A stretch of 64,000 nucleotides of DNA, taken from IMG/VR virus record IMGVR_UViG_3300048694_001042, positions 1-64,000 of that record; one strand, 5' to 3'. Source of the DNA: a virus. The first letter of the stretch is position 1, and every line of letters starts with the position of its first letter. The notes beneath the pieces were generated by a model, which did not search any database, was not told where the DNA came from, and saw only the letters and a list, made by a program, of their open reading frames with translations. Positions 2 to 57,834 of the stretch are shown here, piece by piece. Position numbers and translations under genes: made by a program.

Positions 2-1570
2 GATTTGGTAGGCGACGATCAACTGTTTGACCTTATTGGCGCTGCGGCCGAAGCTGACCCCAACGTAAACATTTGGGACGTACCTGAAGTAGTGGATCGA
101 CTGCAAGAGTTGGGTGTAGAAGTACCTGTAAATCAAGAAGCCGACGAGCAAACTCCGCAAGCAGTGTCCGAAAGTCACATGAGTGAAGTTGATTCAATCA
201 TTCAAGACCTTATTTCCGGCGAAGCTGACGCTTACAACTTGCTGACCAGCCCGACCACTCCCGAAGAACAATATGTGTCCAATATTCTCCGCAAGGAATA
301 CGAAGATGTGTCCATTGATCACGGACTGCATCCGGACGATGACTTTGAAGAAATCATAGATCGCGTGCTTGACCGTTTGGCACAAGACTATGGACACAAT
401 GTAACCGAAGCCGACAGCCCATATTTTGCCGAAACCACAGTGGCCGGTTCAGTTGCTCCTGTGGCACATGAAATGGCAGAAGAAAGTGAAAAGAATCCTT
501 TTACTAATGCGTTAGGTCATGCGTTATGGCGTGACCTAAGCAAAGAAAAGAAAGCAAGCCCTCAACAAGTTCAGCGCAACAAAGAGCGTTGGGCAAAGCG
601 TCAGGCAGAGCGTGAGCAAGGTGTGGCGGAAGAGGCCGAAAATAAAGATATGACCGGCCAAACTTGCGAAAAGTGTAAGCGCGGTAAGTATCAAGAAACC
701 AGCATCCACGATGATATGGATGGTGTATTACATTGTACCAAGTGCGGCACCAAGGTTGATCGTTGGAGAGCATACAAAGAACCGAGCGCCCGCGCCAGAA
801 GTCGTCAAGCAACAAAAGATTTTAATCGTAGTAAAAGTCAAGGTATGGCAGAAGGCTCAACTGATACTGTGTATCCCAACGCCGAAGTAATCAAATCCAA
901 AAACGGCAAGCCAATTGGTGAGATATACAAAGATGAGTATGGTTGGGGCTGCTTCCATTATGGTGCTGACCGTGGATACGACTTGATCGACAGCAGAAAA
1001 GATGCCATTGACGCACTGCGAGACTTGCATCAAGAAGCAGGTCACAAAGGCCCGGACTATACAATTAAAGGTGTGGCGGAAGGCTACGATGACGAAGAAC
1101 ACCCAATCCGCGATGATGGCAACGAAGGTCGTCCGGGCAAACAATACCAGTGCCCGCGTTGTCATTCCACCGACATAAAAACATACAGTGATGGCGAGAA
1201 GGAATGTCACCAGTGCCATAAAACCTGGGATGTTAAAGGTGTGGCGGAAACAACAAGAGGTGGGTTTGGTGGCTCAGCCGGTCAAGCACATCACGAAATT
1301 GAATGGCTCAAGAACAAGATTGAAACACTGAAACCATTGTTGGCCAAGAAACCAAGTATTGCTCGTCAAATAAAAGATTTGGAAAGACAAATCCGTGAGA
1401 GAGAACTGGCTATAGCATATCAGAAGGAAGGCATGGCAGAAGGCGAGCAACAGGCTTTTGTGAATCCGCACCACAATGATCCAATCAACGCCAACAGCGC
1501 CATTACCGGTAGCTACTACGAAGGTGAAGATCCTCTGGTAAGATTAAAATCACTGGCTTTGTCTAAATGA
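2..1570 (+). CDS. 5'-truncated modular protein with repeated G(V/M)AE junctions and two Zn-ribbon modules; probable internal head polyprotein
   Basis: Frame is open to the window start; five G(V/M)AE motifs; CEKC..HCTKC and CPRC..CHQC modules; acidic composition. Confidence 0.6.
   Translation, partial: DLVGDDQLFDLIGAAAEADPNVNIWDVPEVVDRLQELGVEVPVNQEADEQTPQAVSESHMSEVDSIIQDLISGEADAYNLLTSPTTPEEQYVSNILRKEYEDVSIDHGLHPDDDFEEIIDRVLDRLAQDYGHNVTEADSPYFAETTVAGSVAPVAHEMAEESEKNPFTNALGHALWRDLSKEKKASPQQVQRNKERWAKRQAEREQGVAEEAENKDMTGQTCEKCKRGKYQETSIHDDMDGVLHCTKCGTKVDRWRAYKEPSARARSRQATKDFNRSKSQGMAEGSTDTVYPNAEVIKSKNGKPIGEIYKDEYGWGCFHYGADRGYDLIDSRKDAIDALRDLHQEAGHKGPDYTIKGVAEGYDDEEHPIRDDGNEGRPGKQYQCPRCHSTDIKTYSDGEKECHQCHKTWDVKGVAETTRGGFGGSAGQAHHEIEWLKNKIETLKPLLAKKPSIARQIKDLERQIRERELAIAYQKEGMAEGEQQAFVNPHHNDPINANSAITGSYYEGEDPLVRLKSLALSK
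618..1441 (+). repeat. Dispersed in-frame 14-bp repeat AAGGYRTGGCRGAA (5 copies)
   Basis: AAGGTGTGGCGGAA at 618, 1068 and 1236; AAGGTATGGCAGAA at 840; AAGGCATGGCAGAA at 1428. Confidence 0.9.
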
Positions 1571-1610
1571 TATAAATAACATTGACACAGACAGCAAAGG
1601 CGCATATACT
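1571..1610 (+). promoter_or_regulatory. T4-type late promoter plus sigma70 promoter upstream of ssb
   Basis: TATAAATA 1571-1578; TTGACA 1582-1587, 17-nt spacer, TATACT 1605-1610. Confidence 0.7.
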
Positions 1611-1634
1611 AAGTCTTGTGTATGCGCTTTTTTG
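1596..1634 (+). terminator. Intrinsic terminator-like hairpin overlapping the ssb promoter
   Basis: AAAGGCGCATATAC / GTGTATGCGCTTTT stem followed by a T run. Confidence 0.55.
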
Positions 1635-1710
1635 TTCTGTATCACAGGCAACTAAGATCTAATTATTAGATAGGCAACATAACATAGGCAACTTTGAAAG
1701 GAAATATACT

Positions 1711-2715
1711 ATGGCATCATTAGCAGAAATTCGCGCACGTTTACAGGCAGCAGAAAACAAACAAGGTGGGCAATCCACTGGCGGAGACAACTCAATTTAT
1801 CCGCACTGGAATATGGAAGAAGGCCAATCGGCTACACTACGCTTCCTACCCGATGGTAACTCCAAAAACACTTTCTTCTGGATGGAACGAGCAATGATTC
1901 GTTTGCCTTTCGCTGGTATCAAAGGCGAAATGGATTCGAAACAAGTTATGGTTCAAGTACCTTGTGTTGAGATGTGGGGCGAAGCTTGTCCAATCTTGGC
2001 AGAAGTTCGTACTTGGTTCAAGGACAAGAGCCTTGAAGAAATGGGTCGCAAATACTGGAAAAAGCGCAGTTACATTTTCCAAGGCTTTGTGCGTGAAAAC
2101 CCCTTGAGCGAAGACAAGACTCCTGAGAACCCAATTCGCCGATTCATCATCGGTCCTCAGATCTTCACAACCATCAAAGGCGCCTTGATGGACCCCGAGT
2201 TGGAAGAATTGCCAACTGACTACCTGCGTGGCCTGGACTTCCGTATCAGCAAAGGTTCAAAAGGTGGATTTGCTGACTACAACGGCAGCAAGTGGGCACG
2301 TAAAGAAAGCGCTCTCACTGAAGAAGAGCAAGCAGCCATTGAAAAGCATGGCTTGTTTGACTTGAGCACATTCCTGCCCAAGAAGCCCGGCGAAGTTGAG
2401 CTCAAGGTTATCAAAGAGATGTTTGAAGCATCTGTTGATGGTCAGCCATACGACACCGAGCGTTGGGGTCAATACTTCCGTCCTGCTGGTGTTCAAGCAC
2501 CTGGCGGCGCTGCATCCAACAACGACGAGGACACACCTGCTCCTGCAGCCAAGGCAGCACCTGCTCCTGCAGCCAAGCCTGCTGCGGTTGACGAGGATCC
2601 TCCTTTTGACACCGATGACGCTCCAGCAGCCAGCGCACCTGTACAGGCCGCAAAGCCTGCAGGCAATGCCCAAGACATCTTGGCAATGATTCGCGCTCGT
2701 CAAAACAAGCAGTAA
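1711..2715 (+). CDS. ssb: Single-stranded DNA-binding protein, T4 gp32-like
   Basis: LRFLPD, CPIL..VR.WFK, YWKKRSY and ADY..SKW motifs; Ala/Pro/acidic tail; upstream of uvsX. Confidence 0.85.
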   Translation: MASLAEIRARLQAAENKQGGQSTGGDNSIYPHWNMEEGQSATLRFLPDGNSKNTFFWMERAMIRLPFAGIKGEMDSKQVMVQVPCVEMWGEACPILAEVRTWFKDKSLEEMGRKYWKKRSYIFQGFVRENPLSEDKTPENPIRRFIIGPQIFTTIKGALMDPELEELPTDYLRGLDFRISKGSKGGFADYNGSKWARKESALTEEEQAAIEKHGLFDLSTFLPKKPGEVELKVIKEMFEASVDGQPYDTERWGQYFRPAGVQAPGGAASNNDEDTPAPAAKAAPAPAAKPAAVDEDPPFDTDDAPAASAPVQAAKPAGNAQDILAMIRARQNKQ

Positions 2716-2772
2716 TAACTACTGAACACACGCAAGGGGAAACCCTTGCGTTCCATTCTCTATAGGTGATAC

Positions 2773-3834
2773 ATGGCAAAACCATTTGATGTAAGTAAGT
2801 TCCGCAAGGAAATTACAAAAAGTATTGACGGCCTTTCTATTGGCTTCAACGACCCAACTGATTGGGTCTCCACAGGCAACTATGCCTTGAACTATCTCAT
2901 TAGTGGTGACTTCAACCGCGGCATTCCGCTGGGCAAAGTCACTGTGTTTGCAGGTGAATCTGGCGCAGGCAAAAGTTATATCTGCTCTGGTAACATTATC
3001 AAGAACGCACAAGAACAAGGTATCTTTGTTGTGCTGATTGACAGTGAAAATGCTTTGGACGAAGACTGGCTCAAAGCACTTGGTGTTGACACCAACGAAA
3101 ACAAACTTCTCAAATTATCAATGGCCATGATCGATGACGTAGCCAAAACAATCTCTACGTTCATGGCTGATTACAAAGGCTTGCCCGACGGAGAACGGCC
3201 CAAAGTTCTTTTTGTTATCGACTCCCTCGGAATGTTGCTGACCCCTACCGACATCAACCAGTTTGACAGCGGTGACCTGAAAGGTGACCTTGGGCGTAAA
3301 CCTAAAGCTCTTACCGCACTAGTCCGCAACTGTGTTAATATGTTTGGTAGTTATAACGTGGGTTTGGTTTGTACCAACCACACTTATGCCAGCCAAGACA
3401 TGTTTGATCCTGACGATAAGATTAGCGGCGGGCAAGGTTTTATCTACGCAAGCTCAATTGTTGTTGCTATGAAGAAACTCAAACTCAAAGAGGACGAGGA
3501 CGGCAACAAAGTAACTGACGTTATGGGTATTCGTAGTGCTTGCAAGGTTATGAAAACTCGCTATGCCAAACCCTTTGAAGGTGTGCAGGTGAAAATTCCT
3601 TATGAGACAGGTATGAATCCTTACTCAGGTCTTGTGGACTTGGCTGAAAAGAAAGGCTTCCTCAAGAAAGACGGTAACCGGTTGGCTTATACCACATTAG
3701 ACGGTGAGATCATCAAGCATTTCCGCAAAGCTTGGGAATCAAACGAAGGCGGATGCCTTGATGTGGTTATGGCAGAATTCGGAAAACGCAAAGAAGAGGT
3801 AAGTATTGTCGATGACAATCAGGAGGAAGCGTAA
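2773..3834 (+). CDS. uvsX: RecA/UvsX recombinase
   Basis: Walker A GESGAGKS; IDSE, VIDSLG, TNHTY and SGG motifs. Confidence 0.93.
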   Translation: MAKPFDVSKFRKEITKSIDGLSIGFNDPTDWVSTGNYALNYLISGDFNRGIPLGKVTVFAGESGAGKSYICSGNIIKNAQEQGIFVVLIDSENALDEDWLKALGVDTNENKLLKLSMAMIDDVAKTISTFMADYKGLPDGERPKVLFVIDSLGMLLTPTDINQFDSGDLKGDLGRKPKALTALVRNCVNMFGSYNVGLVCTNHTYASQDMFDPDDKISGGQGFIYASSIVVAMKKLKLKEDEDGNKVTDVMGIRSACKVMKTRYAKPFEGVQVKIPYETGMNPYSGLVDLAEKKGFLKKDGNRLAYTTLDGEIIKHFRKAWESNEGGCLDVVMAEFGKRKEEVSIVDDNQEEA

Positions 3835-4557: not shown

Positions 4558-5316
4558 ATGAAAATTGTACTTGTTACTGGTGGATTTGATCCGCTGCACT
4601 CCGGTCACCTTGCTTATTTTGAAGCTGCTCGACAGTTGGGTGATCAACTTATTGTTGGTGTAAATTCTGATGAATGGCTTGTTCGTAAAAAGGGCAGGCC
4701 ATTCATGCCTATTACAGAACGAACTAAGCTCATACAATCGTTAAAAGTAGTGGACAATGTGATATTGTTCAATGACAATGATGGGTCTAGCATTGAAGCC
4801 ATTAAAAATGTCAAAATGTTATACCCAGCTGCTGAGATTGTTTTTGCCAATGGCGGAGACCGTACAAAGGAAAACATTCCCGAAATGGTGTTTGACGATG
4901 TGGAGTTTGTGTTTGGTGTAGGTGGCGAAGATAAAAAGAACAGTTCTAGTTGGATCCTCGAAGATTGGAAAAAGCCCAAGACAGACCGTGCCTGGGGCTA
5001 CTATCGGGTGTTGCACGAGGTAGGCACACATGTCAAACTCAAAGAACTCACCGTAAATCCCAAAACATGCTTGAGCATGCAACGCCATGAACGTCGTGCA
5101 GAGTTTTGGTTTGTGGCCGAAGGCGAAGCCACAGTGTACACAGTGGACCCTTACAGCACAGATTATGACCTAATGGCAAGTCCAGCCAGGCATCAGTCTA
5201 CCTGGATACGACTCAACGAATGGCATCAACTGTGCAACGAAACTGATGAACCACTCAAACTGATCGAAATACAGTATGGCGAAGATTGTGTGGAAGAGGA
5301 CATTGAACGAAAATGA
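4558..5316 (+). CDS. Cytidylyltransferase (HIGH family) fused to a mannose-6-phosphate isomerase-type cupin
   Basis: TGGFDPLHSGH, GVNSDEWL.RKKG, NGGDR; C-terminal WGYY..LSMQRH.RRAEFW..EIQYG..EEDIER cupin. Confidence 0.85.
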   Translation: MKIVLVTGGFDPLHSGHLAYFEAARQLGDQLIVGVNSDEWLVRKKGRPFMPITERTKLIQSLKVVDNVILFNDNDGSSIEAIKNVKMLYPAAEIVFANGGDRTKENIPEMVFDDVEFVFGVGGEDKKNSSSWILEDWKKPKTDRAWGYYRVLHEVGTHVKLKELTVNPKTCLSMQRHERRAEFWFVAEGEATVYTVDPYSTDYDLMASPARHQSTWIRLNEWHQLCNETDEPLKLIEIQYGEDCVEEDIERK

Positions 5317-10466: not shown

Positions 10467-11489
10467 ATGAGTGCAATTCGTGTTGTAAACGGAACATACC
10501 GTAACAAACCCGTCCGTAATCAAGAATTTGTTCTTGTTAACGGTTTCCAGACCGGCGCCAAAGGCAACTATGTTACCGTTAAAAACAACGGTGCCTTTCC
10601 TAACTGCCCCGATACGATTCGTATCAGCGTTGACAACATCGCCGACATCGAGTATACTAACGGTATGACACAAGACAACACCGTACAGTTCGAAAAGCCC
10701 GCAACTCCTGCAGAAACCGACGAGCAAGCCATTGAGCGTATTCGTGAGCGTTTTGACATCCTGCATGAAATGACCAAGGCCAGCGTAACTGGCGACATTC
10801 GTGCTATGATTGTGTCGGGCCCTCCTGGTGTTGGCAAAAGCTTTGGCGTGGAGCAAGAAATTGAAAAAGCTACTATGTTTGACAAGTTGGCTGGCAAGCG
10901 CCTCCGTGCTGAAGTTGTCAAGGGCTCAGCTACCCCAATCGGCTTATATCAAACGCTGTACAAATATAGCGACTCAAATTGTGTCGTGGTATTCGATGAC
11001 TGCGATTCAATTCTGTTGGACGATGTCTCCCTTAACTTACTCAAAGGCGCCCTCGACTCGGGTAAAAAGCGAACCATCAGCTGGTTGTCAGAGTCGTCCG
11101 CCCTGCGCCGTGAAGGCATTCCTGATCGCTTCGAGTTCAAAGGTTCAGTTATCTTCATTACCAACTTGAAGTTTGACAAAATGAAGAGCCAAAAGCTCCG
11201 TGATCACTTGGATGCACTGCAAAGTCGTTGTCACTATCTGGACCTGACGCTTGACACCATGCGTGACAAACTGTTGCGGATCAAGCAGATTGCCAAGGAC
11301 GGCGAGCTGTTCAAGGACTACGAGTTTGAAGAGGCTGTGCAAGATGACATCATTGACTTCATGCACACCAACAAGGATCGCTTGCGTGAAGTGAGCTTGC
11401 GTATGGCTCTGAAGATCGCTGACCTGCGTAAACTGAGTGCGCTGAATTGGAAGCGACTGGCTGAGACCACTTGCATGAAGGCAGCTTAA
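10467..11489 (+). CDS. AAA+/P-loop ATPase
   Basis: Walker A GPPGVGKS, Walker B VVVFDDCD, IFITN sensor, ALQSRC arginine finger. Confidence 0.8.
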   Translation: MSAIRVVNGTYRNKPVRNQEFVLVNGFQTGAKGNYVTVKNNGAFPNCPDTIRISVDNIADIEYTNGMTQDNTVQFEKPATPAETDEQAIERIRERFDILHEMTKASVTGDIRAMIVSGPPGVGKSFGVEQEIEKATMFDKLAGKRLRAEVVKGSATPIGLYQTLYKYSDSNCVVVFDDCDSILLDDVSLNLLKGALDSGKKRTISWLSESSALRREGIPDRFEFKGSVIFITNLKFDKMKSQKLRDHLDALQSRCHYLDLTLDTMRDKLLRIKQIAKDGELFKDYEFEEAVQDDIIDFMHTNKDRLREVSLRMALKIADLRKLSALNWKRLAETTCMKAA

Positions 11490-29281: not shown

Positions 29282-31177
29282 GTGGCAATTTTACAAATTT
29301 CAAGAATAACCAATCGCAAAGGATTAGCCGAAGACCTCCCACAACCATTGGCTGGTGCAGAGCTGGGTTGGGCAACGGACAGTCGTAGATTATTCATTGG
29401 CAACGGAACTGTTGCCGAAGGCGCCCCTGTAGTGGGCAACACAGAAATTCTTACTGAATTTTCTGATTTGCTTTCCTTTGCTAACCAATACACTTACAAC
29501 GGTGTCAGCGCCACTGGATACACAGTACAAACAGGTCCTACTGTAGCTACCCCGGTTTCGCAAAGCATACAAGATAGATTAGATAGCATCGTAATCGCTA
29601 CAGATTTTGGAATCGTTGGCGATGGTGTTACTGATTGTACCGCAGCGATCAACCGTGCAATGTACCAATTGTATTGTGTCAATAATAATCCAGCAATTCG
29701 ACGGGGATTGTTTTTTCCAGCCGGTGCATACCTCATTACAGGAACCTTGTACATTCCTACCTATGCCACACTGATCGGCGAAGGAAATGAAGGCACAACT
29801 ATTTCATTAGTTACACAGACTTGGTTAGGAACAGTTGCCTGGCAGGCTGATACTATTGTGGTTCGCGAAGGCGTTTACTATCTTTCTTCGCAAGCTGTGC
29901 CCCCAAATACCAGTATTGGTGATACAACCTATTGGACTGAAGTACCAGCACCTGAACAGGTTTGGCAAACAGTAGACAGTCAATTCAATACAGGTACCAG
30001 CATTGGCCTAGGATCAGCAGTTGCTCCAACTGGTATCACTATTACAGGAATACAATTTACCACAGACAATCCTGGAATGCAAGGTGCATTGTTGGAAGAT
30101 GCAAGTCATGTGGTATTAGACAGTGTAAGCATTTTAGGACCTCTCACTGAGCAAAATATCACTGACATTGTTATAGACAGTATTGTAGTTGCAGCGGACA
30201 TCAATGCCGGCTACGAATACACAATTGTCACACTAGGCGACACAGATTTTACAGAGATTGGTGCTTCACAAAACGTAATAGGTACAAGATTCACAGCCAC
30301 AGGACCTGGAACAGGAACAGGTACTGCTGAAATCATGTATCCAACCACCACAGCTATTGCCTGGGCCAGTACGCCTGCATTGGTTTGCAGCAATGTAAAC
30401 ATCACAAATTGCAAGTTCGGTGGTTTCTGGACCGGAACAAAAACAGATCAGCAAATCAAAGGCATAGTGATCGGCCAATCAAAATTTGACACACTGTATC
30501 AAGGCATATATCTTGGCGGAGATGCACCAACTGATGGTGGCGCCAGCGGTGTGCGTATGGTTCAAAATACATTTGACAACATTTATTTGCAAGGCATCTC
30601 ACTTGAAAATGTTGAAATGAACGTGTCAGCATACAACACATTTTATGATGTAGGCAACGAATTCAACGGCGTTGATTATCCACAAAGTTCAATCATTGAC
30701 TTTGATGCTGACAACAACGTCAGCATTGGAGACATGTTCCAAAGAACTGCTGATGTTGCAGAAACTTCTGGATTGGCTAGAATCAATCTGCATCGCCGTG
30801 CGAACATTGCCATGGACGGCGCTTATGCTCTGGATCTAGGAACATATCACCGCCAGTCTGGACTTGAAGCAACTCTAGCAGATGGATCCGACGCTGCGGC
30901 ATTGTTTACAGTTGATTCCGCTGTCACTCGAGCATTTGCTGTTGACTATACCATCGTCCGAGACACTGCTGTGGAAACAGGAAAATACACAGTGGTAGCA
31001 GGCACCGACGGAGAGGGCACTGGACTAAACTCAACATACACTGCCCAACTTCAGAACAGTGTCACAAATGTATTCTTTTCTGTTTCTGAATCCGGTGGTG
31101 TGGTATCTCTGCTATATACAGTTGTTCCCAGCGGAACAGACGCCTTACTTTCATACTCTGTAACAAAACTAGCTTGA
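29282..31177 (+). CDS. Tail fibre/spike-like structural protein with pectate-lyase-like beta-helix
   Basis: N-terminal LAGAELGWATD.RRLFIGNG; DFG.VGDGVTD.TAAINRA; FFPAG.Y. Confidence 0.7.
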   Translation: MAILQISRITNRKGLAEDLPQPLAGAELGWATDSRRLFIGNGTVAEGAPVVGNTEILTEFSDLLSFANQYTYNGVSATGYTVQTGPTVATPVSQSIQDRLDSIVIATDFGIVGDGVTDCTAAINRAMYQLYCVNNNPAIRRGLFFPAGAYLITGTLYIPTYATLIGEGNEGTTISLVTQTWLGTVAWQADTIVVREGVYYLSSQAVPPNTSIGDTTYWTEVPAPEQVWQTVDSQFNTGTSIGLGSAVAPTGITITGIQFTTDNPGMQGALLEDASHVVLDSVSILGPLTEQNITDIVIDSIVVAADINAGYEYTIVTLGDTDFTEIGASQNVIGTRFTATGPGTGTGTAEIMYPTTTAIAWASTPALVCSNVNITNCKFGGFWTGTKTDQQIKGIVIGQSKFDTLYQGIYLGGDAPTDGGASGVRMVQNTFDNIYLQGISLENVEMNVSAYNTFYDVGNEFNGVDYPQSSIIDFDADNNVSIGDMFQRTADVAETSGLARINLHRRANIAMDGAYALDLGTYHRQSGLEATLADGSDAAALFTVDSAVTRAFAVDYTIVRDTAVETGKYTVVAGTDGEGTGLNSTYTAQLQNSVTNVFFSVSESGGVVSLLYTVVPSGTDALLSYSVTKLA

Positions 31178-34109: not shown

Positions 34110-35314
34110 AAAAGCGTAATTACACACAGGAACAAGTTCGTAAGTTACAAGGTAGCGTACAAATTGAACACACACTGGCCAAACGTGGAGCATACAAACT
34201 TCGCGAGCTATTGGCCAATGAACCATACATCAACACCTTGGGTGCATACAATGGTCAAATGGCAGTACAACATGCCAAAGCTGGACTCAAAGCAATTTAC
34301 TTGAGCGGTTGGCAAGTGGCAGGTGCAAACAATACCTCAAACCAAACCTATCCCGACCAGTCATTGTATCCAGTTGACTCAGTACCTCGTGTGGTCAAAG
34401 GTATTAACAATGCTTTCCGTCGTGCTGATCAAATTGAAACACTGGAAGGCAATGTCACAACAGATTACTTCCTGCCTATTGTTGCAGATGCCGAAGCAGG
34501 CTTTGGTGGTGCGCTAAACGCTTACGAACTGATGGCAGCAATGATCGAAGCTGGCGCTGCTGGTGTACACTTTGAAGATCAATTGGCGTCGGAAAAGAAA
34601 TGCGGCCACTTGGGCGGCAAAGTTCTTGTACCCACAAGTCAAATGATTCGCACACTGAATGCCGCACGACTGGCCGCGGACGTTGCAGGAGTTGACACAG
34701 TTATCATGGCCCGAACCGATGCAGAAAGTGCAACACTGATTACCAGCGACCACGACCCACTAGACAAGGATTTTATTATCAATGAGCGCACTGAAGAAGG
34801 CTTTTATAAATTTAAGAATGGTATTGATGCTTGTATTAGCAGAGGTCTTGCTTATGCCCCTTACGCTGATCTCCTTTGGTTTGAAACTTCGACTCCTGAT
34901 ATTGCACAAGCTAAGAAGTTTGCTGATGCCATCCACGCTGAGTTTCCTGACCAAATGCTTGCTTACAATTGCAGTCCTAGTTTTAATTGGCGTAAGTTTT
35001 TGAGCGAAGACGAGTGCGAAACGTTCCAGCGTGAACTAGGCGAACTGGGCTACAAGTTCCAGTTCATTACACTTGCCGGCTTCCACTCAGTTAACCTTGC
35101 TACCTTTGAATTGGCCGAAGCGTACCGTCAACGTGGTATGGCTGGCTATTCAGAAATGCAACAACGTGAGTTTGCCGCTCAAGAGCGTGGATTTACCACT
35201 GTCAAGCATCAACGTGAAGTTGGCGTTGGTTACTTTGATGCTATCAGCGAAGCAGTGGGTGCCACAAGCACTGTGGCCAACCGAACAAGTACAGAATCGG
35301 ATCAGTTTCATTGA
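34106..35314 (+). CDS. aceA: Isocitrate lyase
   Basis: [39 protein letters not shown] and KHQREVG. Confidence 0.96.
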
Positions 35315-35508
35315 ACTCACTGGAACGTATCTGGGCCAGAGCAACTGGGCATTTGATGGGCGAGACCGATGAGGATCGCCCTGATGTGCCTATACTCACG
35401 CTGAAAGAAGCTCGAATAGCATTGTTTTTCAAAACGTTTTGGGTTATAATACATGTGATAACTTGCTGTTTTATTATTGCCGGCGTTATTAGACATTGGA
35501 ACAATTGA
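35311..35508 (+). CDS. Small membrane protein
   Basis: RIWARA.G..G motif and C-terminal TM helix. Confidence 0.6.
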
Positions 35509-35690
35509 TATGATACATATTAGACGCGAAGGCGGGCTCCTTCACAATGGTTTTAATTTTTATTCGTTAACAGACAAAAACAGTTTTGGATTTTTGTTTA
35601 GGTATGGTCCTTACATGCCACAGACGAATTTGGGTTCTAAAGTTTACTGTTTTAGATACAGCAAACAAACAAAAAAATGGATAATCGGAC

Positions 35691-36791
35691 ATGTCGCAAG
35701 CTCAATATAACTTAAAAACAAAAACAGATTACTTGCAACGCAAGATGTTTCTGGACCCAGCCGGTCCGGTCACTATTCAACGCTTTGAAGAAGTCAAGTA
35801 CAACAAGATTGTGAAGTTTGAACAAGAAGCACGTGGTTTCTTTTGGGTACCAGAAGAAATCTCATTGACCAAAGATGCTCAGGATTTCAAAGACGCCAGC
35901 GAAACTGTGAAACATATTTTCACTAGTAACTTGTTGCGCCAAACAGCATTGGACAGTTTGCAAGGTCGTGGACCCAGTCAAATTTTTACACCTGTGGTGA
36001 GCTTGCCTGAACTGGAAGCCTTGGTCTACAACTGGACCTTTTTTGAAACAAACATCCACAGTCGTAGTTATTCGCACATCATTCGCAACATCTACAACGT
36101 GCCCAAGGATGTGTTTAATACCATTCACGACACTGAAGAAATTGTGAACATGGCTTCAAGTGTGGGCCGGTATTATGATCACTTGCACATGGTCAACTGT
36201 GAAAAAGAACTAGAAGTTCCTGTTAAAGAACAACCACATGTCAAAGCCATTTGGCTGGCACTGAATGCCAGTTATGCACTGGAAGCGTTCCGCTTCATGG
36301 TTAGCTTTGCCACAAGCCTGGCCATGGTCGAAAACAAGATCTTCATTGGCAACGGCAACATCATCAGTTTGATTCTGCAAGATGAAATCCTGCACAAAGA
36401 ATGGACTGCTTGGATTATCAACCAAGTGGTCAAAGAAGATCCACGTTTTGCCGCTGCCAAGGCAGAATGCGAAGCAGAAGTCTATGCCATGTACATGGAC
36501 GTTATTAGAGAAGAAAAAGCATGGGCAGATTACCTGTTCAAGTTCGGTCCTGTTATTGGATTGAATGCCGCTATCCTGCGAGACTTTGTGGACTATACTG
36601 CGGCCGCTGCGCTCAAGGAAATTGGTATCAAGTATCAAAGCCCTGCACCCAAGAGCACGCCCATTCCTTGGTTCAACAAACATGTGGATACACACAAGAA
36701 ACAAACAGCACTGCAAGAAAATGAAAGCACCAACTATGTGATTGGTGTTCTTGACGGCAAAGTGGATTACGATTCATTACCAGATTTATAA
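35691..36791 (+). CDS. nrdB: Ribonucleotide reductase class Ia beta subunit
   Basis: FW.PEE, LDS, E..HSRSY, LE..RF and DE.LH ligands with radical Tyr. Confidence 0.95.
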   Translation: MSQAQYNLKTKTDYLQRKMFLDPAGPVTIQRFEEVKYNKIVKFEQEARGFFWVPEEISLTKDAQDFKDASETVKHIFTSNLLRQTALDSLQGRGPSQIFTPVVSLPELEALVYNWTFFETNIHSRSYSHIIRNIYNVPKDVFNTIHDTEEIVNMASSVGRYYDHLHMVNCEKELEVPVKEQPHVKAIWLALNASYALEAFRFMVSFATSLAMVENKIFIGNGNIISLILQDEILHKEWTAWIINQVVKEDPRFAAAKAECEAEVYAMYMDVIREEKAWADYLFKFGPVIGLNAAILRDFVDYTAAAALKEIGIKYQSPAPKSTPIPWFNKHVDTHKKQTALQENESTNYVIGVLDGKVDYDSLPDL

Positions 36792-54461: not shown

Positions 54462-55913
54462 ATGATAAGAACTATCACTGCGGGGTTACTTGCCGTTTCA
54501 ATGGCCGGAGCCGTTTCCGCACAAACTCTAATTAATCAAAGCTCTATATCCAGTGGATATGGATCTGCTAGCTTAATAGATACCAACAGTACTTCTAACT
54601 CAGTTAGTACTGTTAATACCACAAATACCAGCACAGCTACGACTAACAGCACCGCTACCAGTACTGTTACGTCCACCAACGTAAACACCAACAACAACGT
54701 AAACAGTGGTGCTGTGACTTATACCAACAACAACGTAAACAGTGGGTCGGTAACCTATACCAACAACAACGTTGCGTCGGGGGAAGTAACATACAACAAC
54801 GTAAACAGTGGCACAGTGAATTACAACAACACAAATACCAGCACTGCCACAAATACTAACAACAACACAAATACCAGCACAAGCACCAATACAAACACAA
54901 ACAACAACACAAATACCAACACCAGTACCAGCACTGCTACAAACACCAACAATAACACAAATACCAGTACCAGTACCAATACAAACACAAACAACAACAC
55001 AAATACCAACACAAATACCAGCACATCAACCAACACCAACAACAACACAAATACCAACACTAGTACCAATACAAACACCAATACAAACATAAACACCAAT
55101 AACGGTACTATGAATTACAACAACACCAACACAAGCACAGCCACTAACACAAACAACAACACCAGTACCAGTACTGCAACTAACACAAACAACAACACCA
55201 GTACTAGCACCAACACAAACACCAATAACAATACCAACACATCAACTAGTACCAACACAAACACCAATAACAATACAAGTACCAGTAACAACGTGAACAC
55301 TAACACAAATACCAGTACTGCTACAAATACTAATACCAACAACAATACCAATACCAGTACAAGTAACAATGTGAATACAAACACCAATACGTCGACTAGC
55401 ACCAGTACAAGTAGTAACAACAACGTCAACCAAAACGTACAAACTGGAGACATGACCAATCGTAATATTAACGATACTACAATTACACAAAAGATTATTC
55501 AGCCTCCACCAACTGCTATTGCTCCAATGATGATGAGCGGCGGCAACCAAGACCTGTGTACAACTGGCACATCCAGTGCTGTACAAACACAAATCTTTGG
55601 TGTGTCAACAGGCGGTACAGTACGTGACTTGAATTGTGAACGTTTGAAGTTGAGCAAGACATTGTTTGATATGGGTATGAAAGTTGCTGCCGTTGCTACA
55701 ATGTGCCAAGACAAGCGTGTTTGGGATGCTATGATGGCTGCAGGAACACCTTGCCCATACGAAGGCAAGATTGGTGAACAGGCCAAGGCTGCATGGGAAG
55801 CAAACCCAACCAAGGTACCACCTGAACCAGAAAAGGAAGTGAAAGATGACACTTATCAGAAAGTTGGCTTTGGTGCTCTTATTGGCATCTTGGTTAACAA
55901 GTGGTTCAACTAA
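54462..55913 (+). CDS. Exported protein with a long Asn/Thr/Ser repeat tract, a Cys-containing C-terminal domain and a terminal hydrophobic helix
   Basis: Signal peptide; NTNTSTST repeats; four Cys in the C-terminal domain. Confidence 0.8.
   Translation: MIRTITAGLLAVSMAGAVSAQTLINQSSISSGYGSASLIDTNSTSNSVSTVNTTNTSTATTNSTATSTVTSTNVNTNNNVNSGAVTYTNNNVNSGSVTYTNNNVASGEVTYNNVNSGTVNYNNTNTSTATNTNNNTNTSTSTNTNTNNNTNTNTSTSTATNTNNNTNTSTSTNTNTNNNTNTNTNTSTSTNTNNNTNTNTSTNTNTNTNINTNNGTMNYNNTNTSTATNTNNNTSTSTATNTNNNTSTSTNTNTNNNTNTSTSTNTNTNNNTSTSNNVNTNTNTSTATNTNTNNNTNTSTSNNVNTNTNTSTSTSTSSNNNVNQNVQTGDMTNRNINDTTITQKIIQPPPTAIAPMMMSGGNQDLCTTGTSSAVQTQIFGVSTGGTVRDLNCERLKLSKTLFDMGMKVAAVATMCQDKRVWDAMMAAGTPCPYEGKIGEQAKAAWEANPTKVPPEPEKEVKDDTYQKVGFGALIGILVNKWFN
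54685..55430 (+). repeat. Coding low-complexity repeat (NNNVNSGxVTYT units then NTNTSTxT units)
   Basis: AAC/ACC/AAT/AGT-rich degenerate tandem array. Confidence 0.9.
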
Positions 55914-57834
55914 CAGCCAAGAACTAGTACCTGGTCAAGTTTATAACACACAAAACTTGACCAATAACTCTACTTCTGCCAGTTCTACTACTGGAACTTG
56001 GCAGAACGTTGGTTTGTGGAATCAGGGATTGCCATGCTGGGCACCAGGCGGGCCCACCTATTGCGGACCAAAACCTTATTTCAATAACGGTAGTGTGAAC
56101 TTTTCCTATGGCACCACTGACTTGAATCAAGTAGTGAACATTGCTGCGGCATTGCCTACCAGCAGCACTGGATTGAGAGTTAATGGTTTCAATTTTGGAT
56201 TCACTGCTAAAAACGGCAATGGCTGGGACGATGGTCGCCAAGACTATCTTGCAGCCTATGTTAAATTCCGTGACACTAGTGGGGCTGTGGTTGCCAATTA
56301 CGACTACTCCGGCAGTACCAATCGCCAATACAACTGGACCACATTTAATTTTAGTGAGACATTTACTACACCTTATGCTGCCAAAGATTTGAGCACAGCG
56401 CAATACGGGTTTGTTGGAAGAGACAACAACTTCTGGGCCGGACCATACGGACCTGAAATCCAAGGAATAAATTTCAGTTTGAAATATTCAGTAGACCCTT
56501 GTGTGAAAGATCCGCTGTCAAGCCCAACCTGTTCAGGCTTCTTGGACGCATTGAGTAAAACAACTGGTGCAACCTCCACTTCGGCAACAACTACCACAGC
56601 TTCGCCTGCCACAGTGGCAGCAACTACAACAACTGAAACACCAGTTACAACAACTACCACAACAGTATCTGGACCACCACCTTCTGCGGTTTCTGCTGAT
56701 TTGTTGTCTAAGATTGTGGAAAGCAATCGAACTGCTAATGCAGCCTCTGCGGCCAGCATTACAGCCGCCACAAATCTAAATGACAAATCTTCTGTGGCAG
56801 CATTTGCGCTGTCAGTGATTGCAAAAAATGCAGCCAATGACCGAGCAATACAAGAAAAAGCAGTAGGAGATGCAATAGCTTCTGCCAATGCGGCTGCAAC
56901 AGCAGCAGTTGAGCAGGCACAAGCAATTGCATTGACTCAAAGTCTAGCCAGTGCAAACACTGCCAATAGACTTGCTGGAGCTGCGGTTGCAAGCAGTGGT
57001 CCAGCGCCTGGCGTTAATACTGCTGCATCAGTTCCAGCAGCTGGAGTCAATAATGCGGTGACAGGTCCAGCACCTGGTGCTACTATTGCAAATAATGCCA
57101 CTGTGGTGACCAATAACACAGGTGCAATACAAACTGGCAACAACAATAATATCACAGCACAGAACAGTTTACCATTGCTAGCCCCAGCACCTGCACCGGT
57201 TGTGGAAAACACTGCACCAACGCAATCAACTGCGCCAGTAGTTCAAACAGCAGTGGTGCAAAATAACAATGTTTCCTTGCCAAGTACTACGCCAGTTGTA
57301 GCCAGTTTTGAGCTGTTACCGCCATCGATCTCAACTGCAACACAACCTGTGACATCAAACCCTGCACAAGGATTAAACGTAGCAATAACATCTACACCAT
57401 TTACGCCTGCACCAGTTTTTGTTTCACCGGCGCCAGTTTTTGTTTCACCAGCGCCAGTAATTGAATTGCCAAAATTCAAAGAAGTCGAAAGCAGTCGTAA
57501 CATAGACATGAGCTCACCCACTGACTTTGTTGCTGGATATGTAAACACCAAACACAACCTAAATGACATGCAAGCCACAACAAACGCACCAGCAGTGAAC
57601 AGCAAAGCACAAGACAATGATGCTGCCGGTGGCGTTACTATTGCAGCCATTGCAAAAATGCCACCAGGATACGATCTATATACGTCACTGTCAATTAGAG
57701 ATGCAAACTTCTACAAGCCAGAAGAGTTGTATCGTGGACAAAAGACTGTGGACAATGTTAGATTACTAAGAGGTTTGACTGGAGCTAGTGATAGAGTCCA
57801 TCAAGAAATGGTTGATAGCCAATATAACAAATAA
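55846..57834 (+). CDS. Exported protein with beta-rich N-terminal domain and Ala/Thr/Pro-rich stalk
   Basis: Signal-like N-terminus; DPC..DPLSSP.C.G motif; low-complexity middle. Confidence 0.7.
   Translation: MTLIRKLALVLLLASWLTSGSTNSQELVPGQVYNTQNLTNNSTSASSTTGTWQNVGLWNQGLPCWAPGGPTYCGPKPYFNNGSVNFSYGTTDLNQVVNIAAALPTSSTGLRVNGFNFGFTAKNGNGWDDGRQDYLAAYVKFRDTSGAVVANYDYSGSTNRQYNWTTFNFSETFTTPYAAKDLSTAQYGFVGRDNNFWAGPYGPEIQGINFSLKYSVDPCVKDPLSSPTCSGFLDALSKTTGATSTSATTTTASPATVAATTTTETPVTTTTTTVSGPPPSAVSADLLSKIVESNRTANAASAASITAATNLNDKSSVAAFALSVIAKNAANDRAIQEKAVGDAIASANAAATAAVEQAQAIALTQSLASANTANRLAGAAVASSGPAPGVNTAASVPAAGVNNAVTGPAPGATIANNATVVTNNTGAIQTGNNNNITAQNSLPLLAPAPAPVVENTAPTQSTAPVVQTAVVQNNNVSLPSTTPVVASFELLPPSISTATQPVTSNPAQGLNVAITSTPFTPAPVFVSPAPVFVSPAPVIELPKFKEVESSRNIDMSSPTDFVAGYVNTKHNLNDMQATTNAPAVNSKAQDNDAAGGVTIAAIAKMPPGYDLYTSLSIRDANFYKPEELYRGQKTVDNVRLLRGLTGASDRVHQEMVDSQYNK

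Follow-up and report, generated by a model that had tools for sequence, protein, structure and literature searches.

Why does one short stretch of DNA recur, in a single reading frame and with nearly the same codons, between small protein modules that have no significant similarity to one another? The question is raised by the first open reading frame (ORF) of IMG/VR record IMGVR_UViG_3300048694_001042, an 88,493-bp linear contig of 45% GC whose ends do not overlap and which is rated as a genome fragment, about 25% complete. The first 64 kb of this record (64,000 nucleotides, here called the window) were analyzed; the source is an uncultured freshwater T4-related giant phage. The ORF, at 2–1570 on the plus strand (as are all features below unless stated otherwise), covers the 3′ portion of a gene for a virion structural protein, here called the carrier, and holds five modules set apart by a junction of 17–18 nucleotides (nt). 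A preliminary description, made from the letters alone, had proposed that the junction is at once a crossover site in DNA and a protease site in the protein. Our analysis makes the first of these roles very probable and the second probable.

Junctions and modules of the carrier gene

The open frame comprises 522 codons and a stop, and its 5′ end lies beyond the contig start. Positions 2–465 encode a conserved body region, equivalent to residues 365–529 of the orthologues P0004–P0016 (about 570 amino acids, aa), and positions 1445–1570 encode a conserved C-terminal tail (...GEDPLVRLKSLALSK) with the stop, equivalent to the last 30–46 residues of insert-free orthologues. P0004–P0016 match only query residues 1–160 and 480/493–522 and hence are insert-free, so the five modules of the window are placed between the carrier body and its conserved C-terminal tail. 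At the insert position the empty-site orthologues read ...TTVAGGVAPVQGELEE up to the point of insertion and AQWGQ... after it, followed by the tail ...DPLARLKTLALSK, and where the window has its leftmost, degenerate junction they read QGELEE. The full-length orthologue P0002, from contig L198, has 745 aa.

The 14-mer AAGGTGTGGCGGAA is found exactly at 618, 1068, and 1236 and with two mismatches at 840. At up to two mismatches there are thus four matches, against a mean of 0.55 in shuffled sequences, none of which (0/100) reached four. A second subtype, AAGG(T/C)ATGGCAGAAGGC, occurs as AAGGTATGGCAGAAGGC at 840 and as AAGGCATGGCAGAAGGC at 1428. From left to right the junctions are J0 (466–482, ACATGAAATGGCAGAAG, H-E-M-A-E; HEMAEE at 466–483), a degenerate copy that forms the left edge of the insert; J1 (618–634, AAGGTGTGGCGGAAGAG, QGVAEE); J2 (840–856, QGMAEG); J3 (1068–1084, AAGGTGTGGCGGAAGGC, KGVAEG); J4 (1236–1249, the exact 14-mer, KGVAE and then T, as KGVAET); and J5 (1428–1444, EGMAEG). 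All copies are in the one frame of the ORF, and J1 to J5 are spaced 74, 76, 56, and 64 codons apart. The consensus of 17–18 nt is (C/A/G)AA GGT GTG GCG GAA GG(C), translated as (Q/K/E)-G-V/M-A-E-G. In the open frames of at least 60 aa in the 88,493-bp contig, the peptide motif is confined to ORF 2–1570, apart from two loose look-alikes written with other codons, RKGLAEDL at 29315 and PIGVAEPL at 10942 on the minus strand. The five junctions and the degenerate copy near 470 that the preliminary description had listed are all present and in frame, and exact matching together with the shuffles confirmed its three identical 14-mers and its second subtype. Its impression, gained by eye, that GCG is a minority codon for Ala also proved correct; GCG makes up 8.3% of the 1,444 Ala codons in the contig's long open frames and stands in three of the five junctions.

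The modules between the junctions, those of 74, 76, 56, and 64 codons included, are mutually dissimilar as had been claimed, similarity between modules being nowhere significant (the best pair has an E-value of 0.1), and the types assigned to them were also upheld. M0 (483–617) is a basic helical module with 11 Lys plus Arg and 8 Asp plus Glu. M1 (635–839) and M3 (1085–1235) are zinc-ribbon modules of the CxxC...CxxC kind (CEKC...CTKC and CPRC...CHQC, respectively), M1 giving a weak match to Zn_Ribbon_TF under the Pfam cut-off. M4 (1250–1427) is predicted to be helical and coiled-coil-like, with two long helices at a predicted local distance difference test (pLDDT) score of 85–96 in a single-sequence model. 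M2 (857–1067), a mini-domain of four strands plus a helix, is the most widespread cassette and was covered in 99 of 120 among the homologues listed. Its AlphaFold2 model (alignment of 24, mean pLDDT 76) has a core at 83–95 and both junction ends below 50, and in a weak single-sequence model of residues 137–522 all five junctions lie in segments with pLDDT below 50.

Known folds and families offer little for M2. Pfam gave just a weak hint of DUF2188 under the cut-off, Foldseek found no match in the PDB at an E-value of 1e-3 or better, and the best VIA-align hit had a Z of 5.1 (6d7k_H, root-mean-square deviation 4.5, 62 aligned), which is in the range of chance arrangements; in the Atlas M2 met unnamed clusters alone, at up to 0.85. 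When cultured phages were searched by tblastn with the window ORF, only Variovorax phage V45v66 was matched, by zinc-ribbon similarity without the junction, and no junction carrier was found among cultured phages in this search.

Exchange of cassettes at the junction

A sister contig of the window, JACCDW010287134.1 (L198), is 93–95% identical to it over 1–482, 620–856, and 1428–3407. Its sole junction (4998–5014), identical to J5, aligns to both J2 and J5, and the contig is without window positions 857–1444, that is, 588 bases or 196 codons and exactly M2, M3, and M4. The break falls inside the 17-mer, with J2 as the left and J5 as the right breakpoint of the M2–M4 indel. In the same contig M0 (137 nt) is swapped for 296 nt that encode two other modules and are bounded by J0 and J1. 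In another relative, L199, the carrier gene is 70.7% identical, yet M1 is 95.1% identical in nucleotides and the first 71 nt of M3, which there come right after the carrier body, are 95.8% identical; the order of the two is M3′–M1. Homology to the window stops at 482, the last position of J0, in both L198 and L199, and a third contig, L200, carries an empty site. Alignment of orthologues thus reveals gain, loss, and replacement of modules with breaks inside the junction, as the preliminary description had anticipated.

The same coincidence of breakpoints and junctions is seen on a larger scale. Among 118 non-redundant polyprotein ORFs, internal homology (matches of at least 88% identity and at least 150 nt) ends no more than 9 nt from a junction center in 230/360 cases, compared with 10/360 random positions, and no more than 15 nt away in 276/360, compared with 23/360; the contrast at 9 nt is about twenty-fold, in a count where ordered pairs and related sequences both enter, so that the 360 ends are not independent events. 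A census of 203 non-redundant ORFs or proteins yielded 477 modules bounded by junctions on both sides, with a median length of 76 aa, which fall into 250 families, 177 of them singletons. Searched separately, modules of the window proved to have copies in other junction-bearing genes: M3 (family 9) has four copies with three kinds of neighbor on each side, M4 (family 8) has four, and M2 has 91, with neighbors of 31 kinds on its left and of 41 on its right, M2 being over-represented in the census because it served as bait for collecting the sequences. In contigs from four independent freshwater metagenome runs, 14 of the 24 loose ends, among those listed, lie at the edges of J1 (610–632) or J3 (1067/1068/1085). 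One joint of 632 to 887, with 32 other letters between, was not used, because its shorter arm spans just 21 letters and it may belong to another gene.

Codon choice was compared for 88 junctions from 22 M2-bearing loci and the window contig, with the same ORFs as background. Gly is encoded by GGT in 84/88 junctions (background 37–41%), Val by GTG in 76/82 (20–25%), Ala by GCG in 78/88 (6–10%), and Glu by GAA in 78/88 (79–83%), and the codon before the junction Gly has A as its third base in 84/84. Where GVAE occurs inside a module (VHGVAECW), the codons are GTA GCC instead. A 352-kb relative of 36.6% GC, in which GCG provides 7.3% of Ala and GTG 8.3% of Val codons, has the same letters in 6/6 copies. 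In 2.25 Mb of sequence, largely found through a DNA pattern scan blind to frame, 276/280 exact 14-mers stand in the GVAE frame of open frames of at least 100 codons. The junction is present in at least 120 IMG/VR stretches and also in independent freshwater runs. Tested against codon usage, its synonymous sites are thus fixed far beyond background.

Besides the dependence among homology ends, two observations weigh against exchange at the junction as the whole account. The M3 of L199 is shortened, and the right end of that exchange is not at a junction. Silent sites inside M2 copies are fairly conserved too, and the argument from fixation therefore depends on the junctions that flank modules of unrelated kinds and on how their codons compare with general usage. 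Even so, breakpoints inside the junction in orthologues, homology ends clustered at junctions, and fixed codons together lend strong support to a crossover site, and we judge it very probable from these sequence comparisons that the junction DNA is a patch of homology for in-frame gain, loss, replacement, and reordering of cassettes.

What then carries out the exchange? A search for tyrosine recombinase (PF00589) gave no match in the window contig, which is a fragment, in relative G007, or in relative G001, which is rated complete, while 14 of 14 control genomes were matched. As no tyrosine recombinase was found, general homologous recombination is the likely agent, and genes for UvsX and UvsY adjoin the carrier gene. 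Integrons depend on the IntI recombinase together with structured attC sites, and each of their cassettes is an entire gene. The array described here resembles them in being variable and ordered, with interchangeable units set off by one repeated site; it differs in that no integrase was found, the site is a non-palindromic 17-nt direct repeat in coding sequence without attC-like structure, and the units are protein modules in frame. The term integron-like, used earlier for this locus, is thus apt as an analogy only.

The junction as a candidate head-protease site

The constraint on the junction as a peptide can be read from 113 single-mismatch variants of the 14-mer. The Glu codon has 23 synonymous and 3 non-synonymous changes, the Val codon 20 and 11 (eight to Met, one to Leu, two to Ala), the Ala codon 11 and 13, and the Gly codon 6 and 15, so that at the level of codons Glu is by far the most constrained, followed by Val, then Ala, then Gly. 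At 178 boundaries of M2, located by an internal anchor and without use of the motif, P1 is Glu in 176 and P3 is V/M/L/I in 174, with Ala in 160 and Gly in 165. V/M-A-E, with Glu at P1 and a hydrophobic P3, is found at all five junctions of the window. Passages of PMC9026906 on T4 state that processing of the capsid targeting sequence (CTS) by gp21 depends on residues 8 and 10, Asp at residue 10 blocking it, and that giant-phage proteases likewise cleave after Glu with few further determinants. As far as variant sequences tell, the order of constraint at the junction, P1 Glu and then hydrophobic P3, matches that of T4 gp21 sites.

Related genomes hold the rest of the expected apparatus. G007 (300 kb, 45.1% GC), whose gp32 and UvsX proteins are 82% and 91% identical in amino acids to those of the window, encodes Portal_T4 (1.5e-103), Peptidase_S77 (5.6e-24), a scaffold protein, and Gp23, and G001 has the same head set (Peptidase_S77 at 8.8e-28). 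In G008 gp32, UvsX, and UvsY are 89%, 86%, and 91% identical to the window proteins. Gp23 was not found in G008 (342,865 bp, rated 99% complete) or G009, which may reflect a limit of sensitivity or a G008 without the head module, nor was it found in five other fragment records. The capsid proteins of the relatives have L-x-E sites near their N-termini, ahead of the mature domain (LLAE↓S, HLAE↓N, LLSE↓S, YLKE↓N). Seven ORFs of G007 and about seven of ten pattern matches in G001 start with MRAxEF(I/V/L/M)xE, including MRAQEFIAE; the T4 internal proteins (IPs) IPII and IPIII start MKTYQEFIAE, and IPI starts MKTFKEF. Directly after the three junction-bearing genes of G001 stand four genes of the MRAxEF type, and these starts make the products of such genes candidates for internal or injected proteins in this group of giant phages. 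Groups of them lie at 102,342–102,740 and 194,866–199,858 in G001 and at 78,323–78,688, 165,249, 213,925, and 235,814–237,504 in G007.

A further line of evidence comes from small proteins of 69–232 aa, 44 of the 252 collected, that follow one plan of leader, cargo, and tail. The leader reads MKTLREMMDL(I/V)E.AQ. or M.NKSIRDYINLIE.. and ends in GVAE; it also takes the form MKTLREMMDLIE..Q-GVAE. The cargo consists of one to four unrelated modules, each with GVAE at its end, and the tail at the extreme C-terminus reads EQ(V/L)EE(S/T).P.A.AKI..L.RK. Five further proteins have the leader alone and none the tail alone. The search profile comprised M2 and its flanks, leader and tail included, so that recovery of the latter two is by design and it is the unrelated cargo that is informative. 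One such cargo, ELTTYLVSVMD..., is a module that takes the place of M0 in L198, and the gp21 protease of G007 itself starts MKTLRE. A constant leader of 16–20 residues and a constant tail of 20 on variable cargo would be hard to explain unless both are removed.

Another C-terminal resemblance was noted in passing. The scaffold proteins of four genomes (G007 35,247–36,377; L024, L260, L261) end in ..(I/L/F)KRLAGL, and many polyprotein tails hold ..LKKLAG(A/L)GP(L/M)KTVYDP.. (for example, G007 212,591–213,928); a relaxed pattern has only three occurrences in the 204,502 aa of G007. The tail of the window's carrier (RLKSLALSK) does not match the pattern. This may hint at a shared prohead-binding motif.

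Is the carrier itself a virion protein? Its orthologue P0007 matches phrog_13484, "virion structural protein" (E 1.7e-8), and its body is homologous to PQE65_gp278 of phage PA5oct (tblastn 7e-12, residues 84–316), the matching stretch of the body being located upstream of the window. The annotation of PQE65_gp278 is again that of a virion structural protein, and it bears a note of electrospray ionization tandem mass spectrometry (ESI-MS/MS). PA5oct and the window's phage group also share a gene order of carrier, a 328-aa protein, and, farther on, UvsX. The middle domain of the carrier (query residues ~54–133) occurs alone in many other contigs and elsewhere as a junction-bounded module (family 11).

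Region 2–465 of the carrier also contains the motif TTVAGSVAPV. In the form TTVAG(S/G)(V/M/I)AP(V/M) (window 437–466) it immediately precedes the tail junction of P0001, P0002, and P0004–P0016, and related forms are found at the N-terminus (residues 10–20) of P0057, a junction-bearing polyprotein of G001, and near the C-terminus of P0079; overall 17 of 120 proteins have a motif of this type.

Several findings weigh against cleavage of the junction by the head protease. The likely maturation sites of the relatives' capsid proteins are LAE, LSE, and LKE rather than GVAE, and Ala at P2 and Gly at P4 of the junction are thus not explained by the protease. Peptidase_S77 and major capsid genes were not found on the window contig, a fragment of about 25% (PF03420 gave no match), nor was a leader of the MRAxEF type, so that the protease evidence derives from relatives. 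The N-terminus of the carrier (P0002, MGTKGTISQDL...) has no CTS-like leader, such leaders being present on other junction-bearing proteins of this group, and some junction carriers start with enzymes (cytidylyltransferase-like, HD) that are not obvious capsid cargo. A complex prediction of G007 gp21 with M2 and both its junctions gave no answer (score 0.00) and speaks neither for nor against binding. The earlier claim of a protease site stands only indirectly, through the gp21-like constraint on residues, the Peptidase_S77 genes and T4-like leaders of the relatives, and the small proteins built of leader, junction, cargo, junction, and tail; on balance the junction peptide is probably a site of a gp21-type head protease.

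We propose the following course of events. Five unrelated mini-protein cassettes are arrayed between the carrier body and its conserved C-terminal tail, with the same coding junction of 17–18 nt at every cassette boundary. Cassettes are exchanged at the junction, probably by general homologous recombination and without a dedicated integrase, and silent positions stay fixed because the DNA of the junction is the exchange patch. The carrier would be built into the prohead, where a gp21-type prohead protease would cut the junction after Glu with a hydrophobic P3; targeting pieces, both leader and tail, would be removed by the protease, and the cassettes would be freed as separate small internal proteins. 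Like the T4 internal proteins, they would then enter the host with the DNA. That the junction thus combines exchange of cassettes with their release in the prohead and their injection is, we think, the likelier state of affairs.

How well do other readings account for the same observations? The junction might be a recombination patch and a flexible linker only, left uncut, with the modules as beads on a string in the virion. All of the DNA-level evidence fits this equally, and the junctions are predicted to be disordered linkers; an uncut linker, however, gives no reason for a Glu kept almost without exception (176/178) and a hydrophobic P3 beside a Gly that varies freely, nor for the constant leader, constant tail, and shared motif around variable cargo in proteins of 69–232 aa, and we regard this reading as unlikely. 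We give still less credence to cleavage in the cytoplasm by another host or phage protease, as a strategy of polyprotein expression unrelated to the capsid: it would suit those carriers that are enzymes with no obvious head role, and no targeting leader is seen on the window's carrier, but the specificity pattern equals that of gp21, Peptidase_S77 and CTS-like leaders are present in relatives, and the carrier family is annotated as virion-detected.

It is highly improbable that the fixed nucleotides serve RNA or translation, whether as internal GTG/ATG starts after a Shine-Dalgarno-like AAGG or by pausing ribosomes at domain borders. The Val and Met codons of the junction double as start codons, and AAGGTG looks like a ribosome-binding site, yet changes of GTG to GTA or GTT, which are not start codons, are among the commonest variants (20/113), AAGG stands just 1 nt ahead of the codon, and stand-alone forms start at their own leader rather than at the junction; on these grounds internal starts were rejected, and since the flanks of the junction differ, a conserved RNA structure is impossible. 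A chance repeat or an assembly artefact, for which only the shortness of the repeat speaks, is practically negligible in view of the shuffles, the at least 120 IMG/VR stretches, and the independent freshwater runs.

If the junction is indeed both exchange point and head-protease site, one short sequence would be selected as peptide and as DNA, and these phages would possess a combinatorial, horizontally shared arsenal. Cutting by the head protease would mean a new route by which a phage builds and diversifies its set of injected proteins, with modules lined up in a single gene and traded between phages at the same codons where the protein is afterwards cut. Leader, junction, and tail would then be a sequence tag for finding injected proteins of uncultured giant phages, the pool of at least 250 module families a source of candidate anti-defense proteins, and the whole a model from nature for packing more than one cargo into capsids of the T4 type. 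A general in-frame cassette system for capsid-delivered proteins, with a CTS-like leader, an 18-nt dual junction, a C-terminal tail, and hundreds of modules that could be plugged into leader/tail mini-genes or virion proteins, is an extension that we put forward tentatively. Even on its own, the DNA half shows clearly how a short repeat within coding sequence directs the shuffling of domains in frame. To the preliminary description the present work adds what the carrier is, how constraint differs from residue to residue, the mini-genes of leader, cargo, and tail, and general statistics of breakpoints.

Known systems and other features of the contig

The closest counterparts in function are the internal proteins of T4. 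IPI, IPII, IPIII, and Alt, as described in PMC9026906, carry variable cargo behind a short constant N-terminal leader with hydrophobic-x-Glu at its end. This leader is cleaved off by the prohead protease, a C-terminal propeptide is lost from Alt as well, and the cargo is injected. Relatives of the window phage are T4-like in having leaders of the MRAQEFIAE and MKTLRE... types and a Peptidase_S77 gene. They are unlike T4 in that T4 uses a separate gene with one site for each cargo, whereas several cargos here share one frame with an identical site, whose DNA is fixed and is the exchange point, and the carrier is a large virion protein without an N-terminal leader. At the IP loci of T-even phages, for which PMC2839356 reports more than 30 IP variants, exchangeable genes are shuffled at short conserved sequences (PeSL). 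The likeness lies in a large exchangeable pool of cargo and in recombination at short conserved sequences; PeSL is an intergenic promoter with a stem-loop that moves whole genes, whereas here a coding repeat of 17–18 nt moves modules in frame. The exchanged units are inside one ORF and the breakpoints in a coding junction, which sets the locus apart from PeSL.

In the tail-fiber adhesins gp37/gp38 of T-even phages, recombination between conserved coding motifs reportedly swaps variable segments. The two cases are alike in that conserved coding motifs inside a gene are the crossover points, and they differ in that the adhesin segments belong to one fold and bind receptors, whereas unrelated, self-contained mini-domains are exchanged here and the motif also resembles a protease site. 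The polyvalent proteins of phages and conjugative elements (Iyer et al. 2017; PMC5512222) unite disparate domains in a single chain that is predicted to accompany the DNA, and their processing is ascribed to zincin-like peptidases within the protein. The carrier shares with them a multi-module architecture and a proposed processing by peptidase, and relatives carry CTP_transf_like, HD_4, and GP88; a uniform junction and conservation at the DNA level are not described there, and most modules of the present system are very small (median 76 aa). In the giant phages phiKZ, 201phi2-1, and SPN3US, head and inner-body proteins are cut at many sites after Glu by gp21-related proteases that recognize short Glu motifs, according to the relevant part of PMC9026906, where propeptides are cut off individual proteins and cassette arrays of dual role are not described. 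A literature search that did not extend to subscription papers or supplementary files found no description of a polyprotein system that joins such a junction with a prohead protease. Each half has a precedent, in the processing of T4 IP/CTS and in recombination at conserved coding motifs; their fusion in one in-frame junction is without a description found.

Downstream of the carrier gene lies a terminator-like hairpin (1596–1631; 1596–1641 with its T run; one found against 0.1 expected), followed by a gene for a gp32-type single-strand DNA-binding protein (phrog_1192, 2.7e-69). Further downstream genes encode a RecA/UvsX-like recombinase, a UvsY-like mediator, and a cytidylyltransferase-like protein, with helicases and ribonucleotide reductase farther on. 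Between the hairpin and the start of the gp32-like gene, at 1640–1693, are three spaced copies of (A/C)AGGCAAC(T), with ATAGGCAAC exact at 1670 and 1684; these are candidate regulatory sites, and the region is 88.7% conserved in L200.

Other observations concern parts of the contig away from the carrier. The window encodes at 55,843–57,834 a 662-aa ORF with a signal-peptide-like start (MTLIRKLALVLLLASWL) that is kept in G001 (269,234) and G007 (242,619), a sign that these phages may share a conserved protein of the membrane or one that is exported. Outside the window, positions 74,028–77,156 of the contig (L001) hold at least nine tandem small ORFs of 64–115 aa that all end in (F/W)(A/F)L(R/K)W(S/L/A). 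One L001 ORF (1459–1806, at about 75.5 kb of the contig) is similar at its start to the N-terminal end of major capsid proteins (PF07068 positions 2–44, E 6.3e-10). The final 300 bases (about 88,190–88,493) form an extended tract of low complexity in which Pro, Ala, and Gly codons abound and which is cut off by the contig end.

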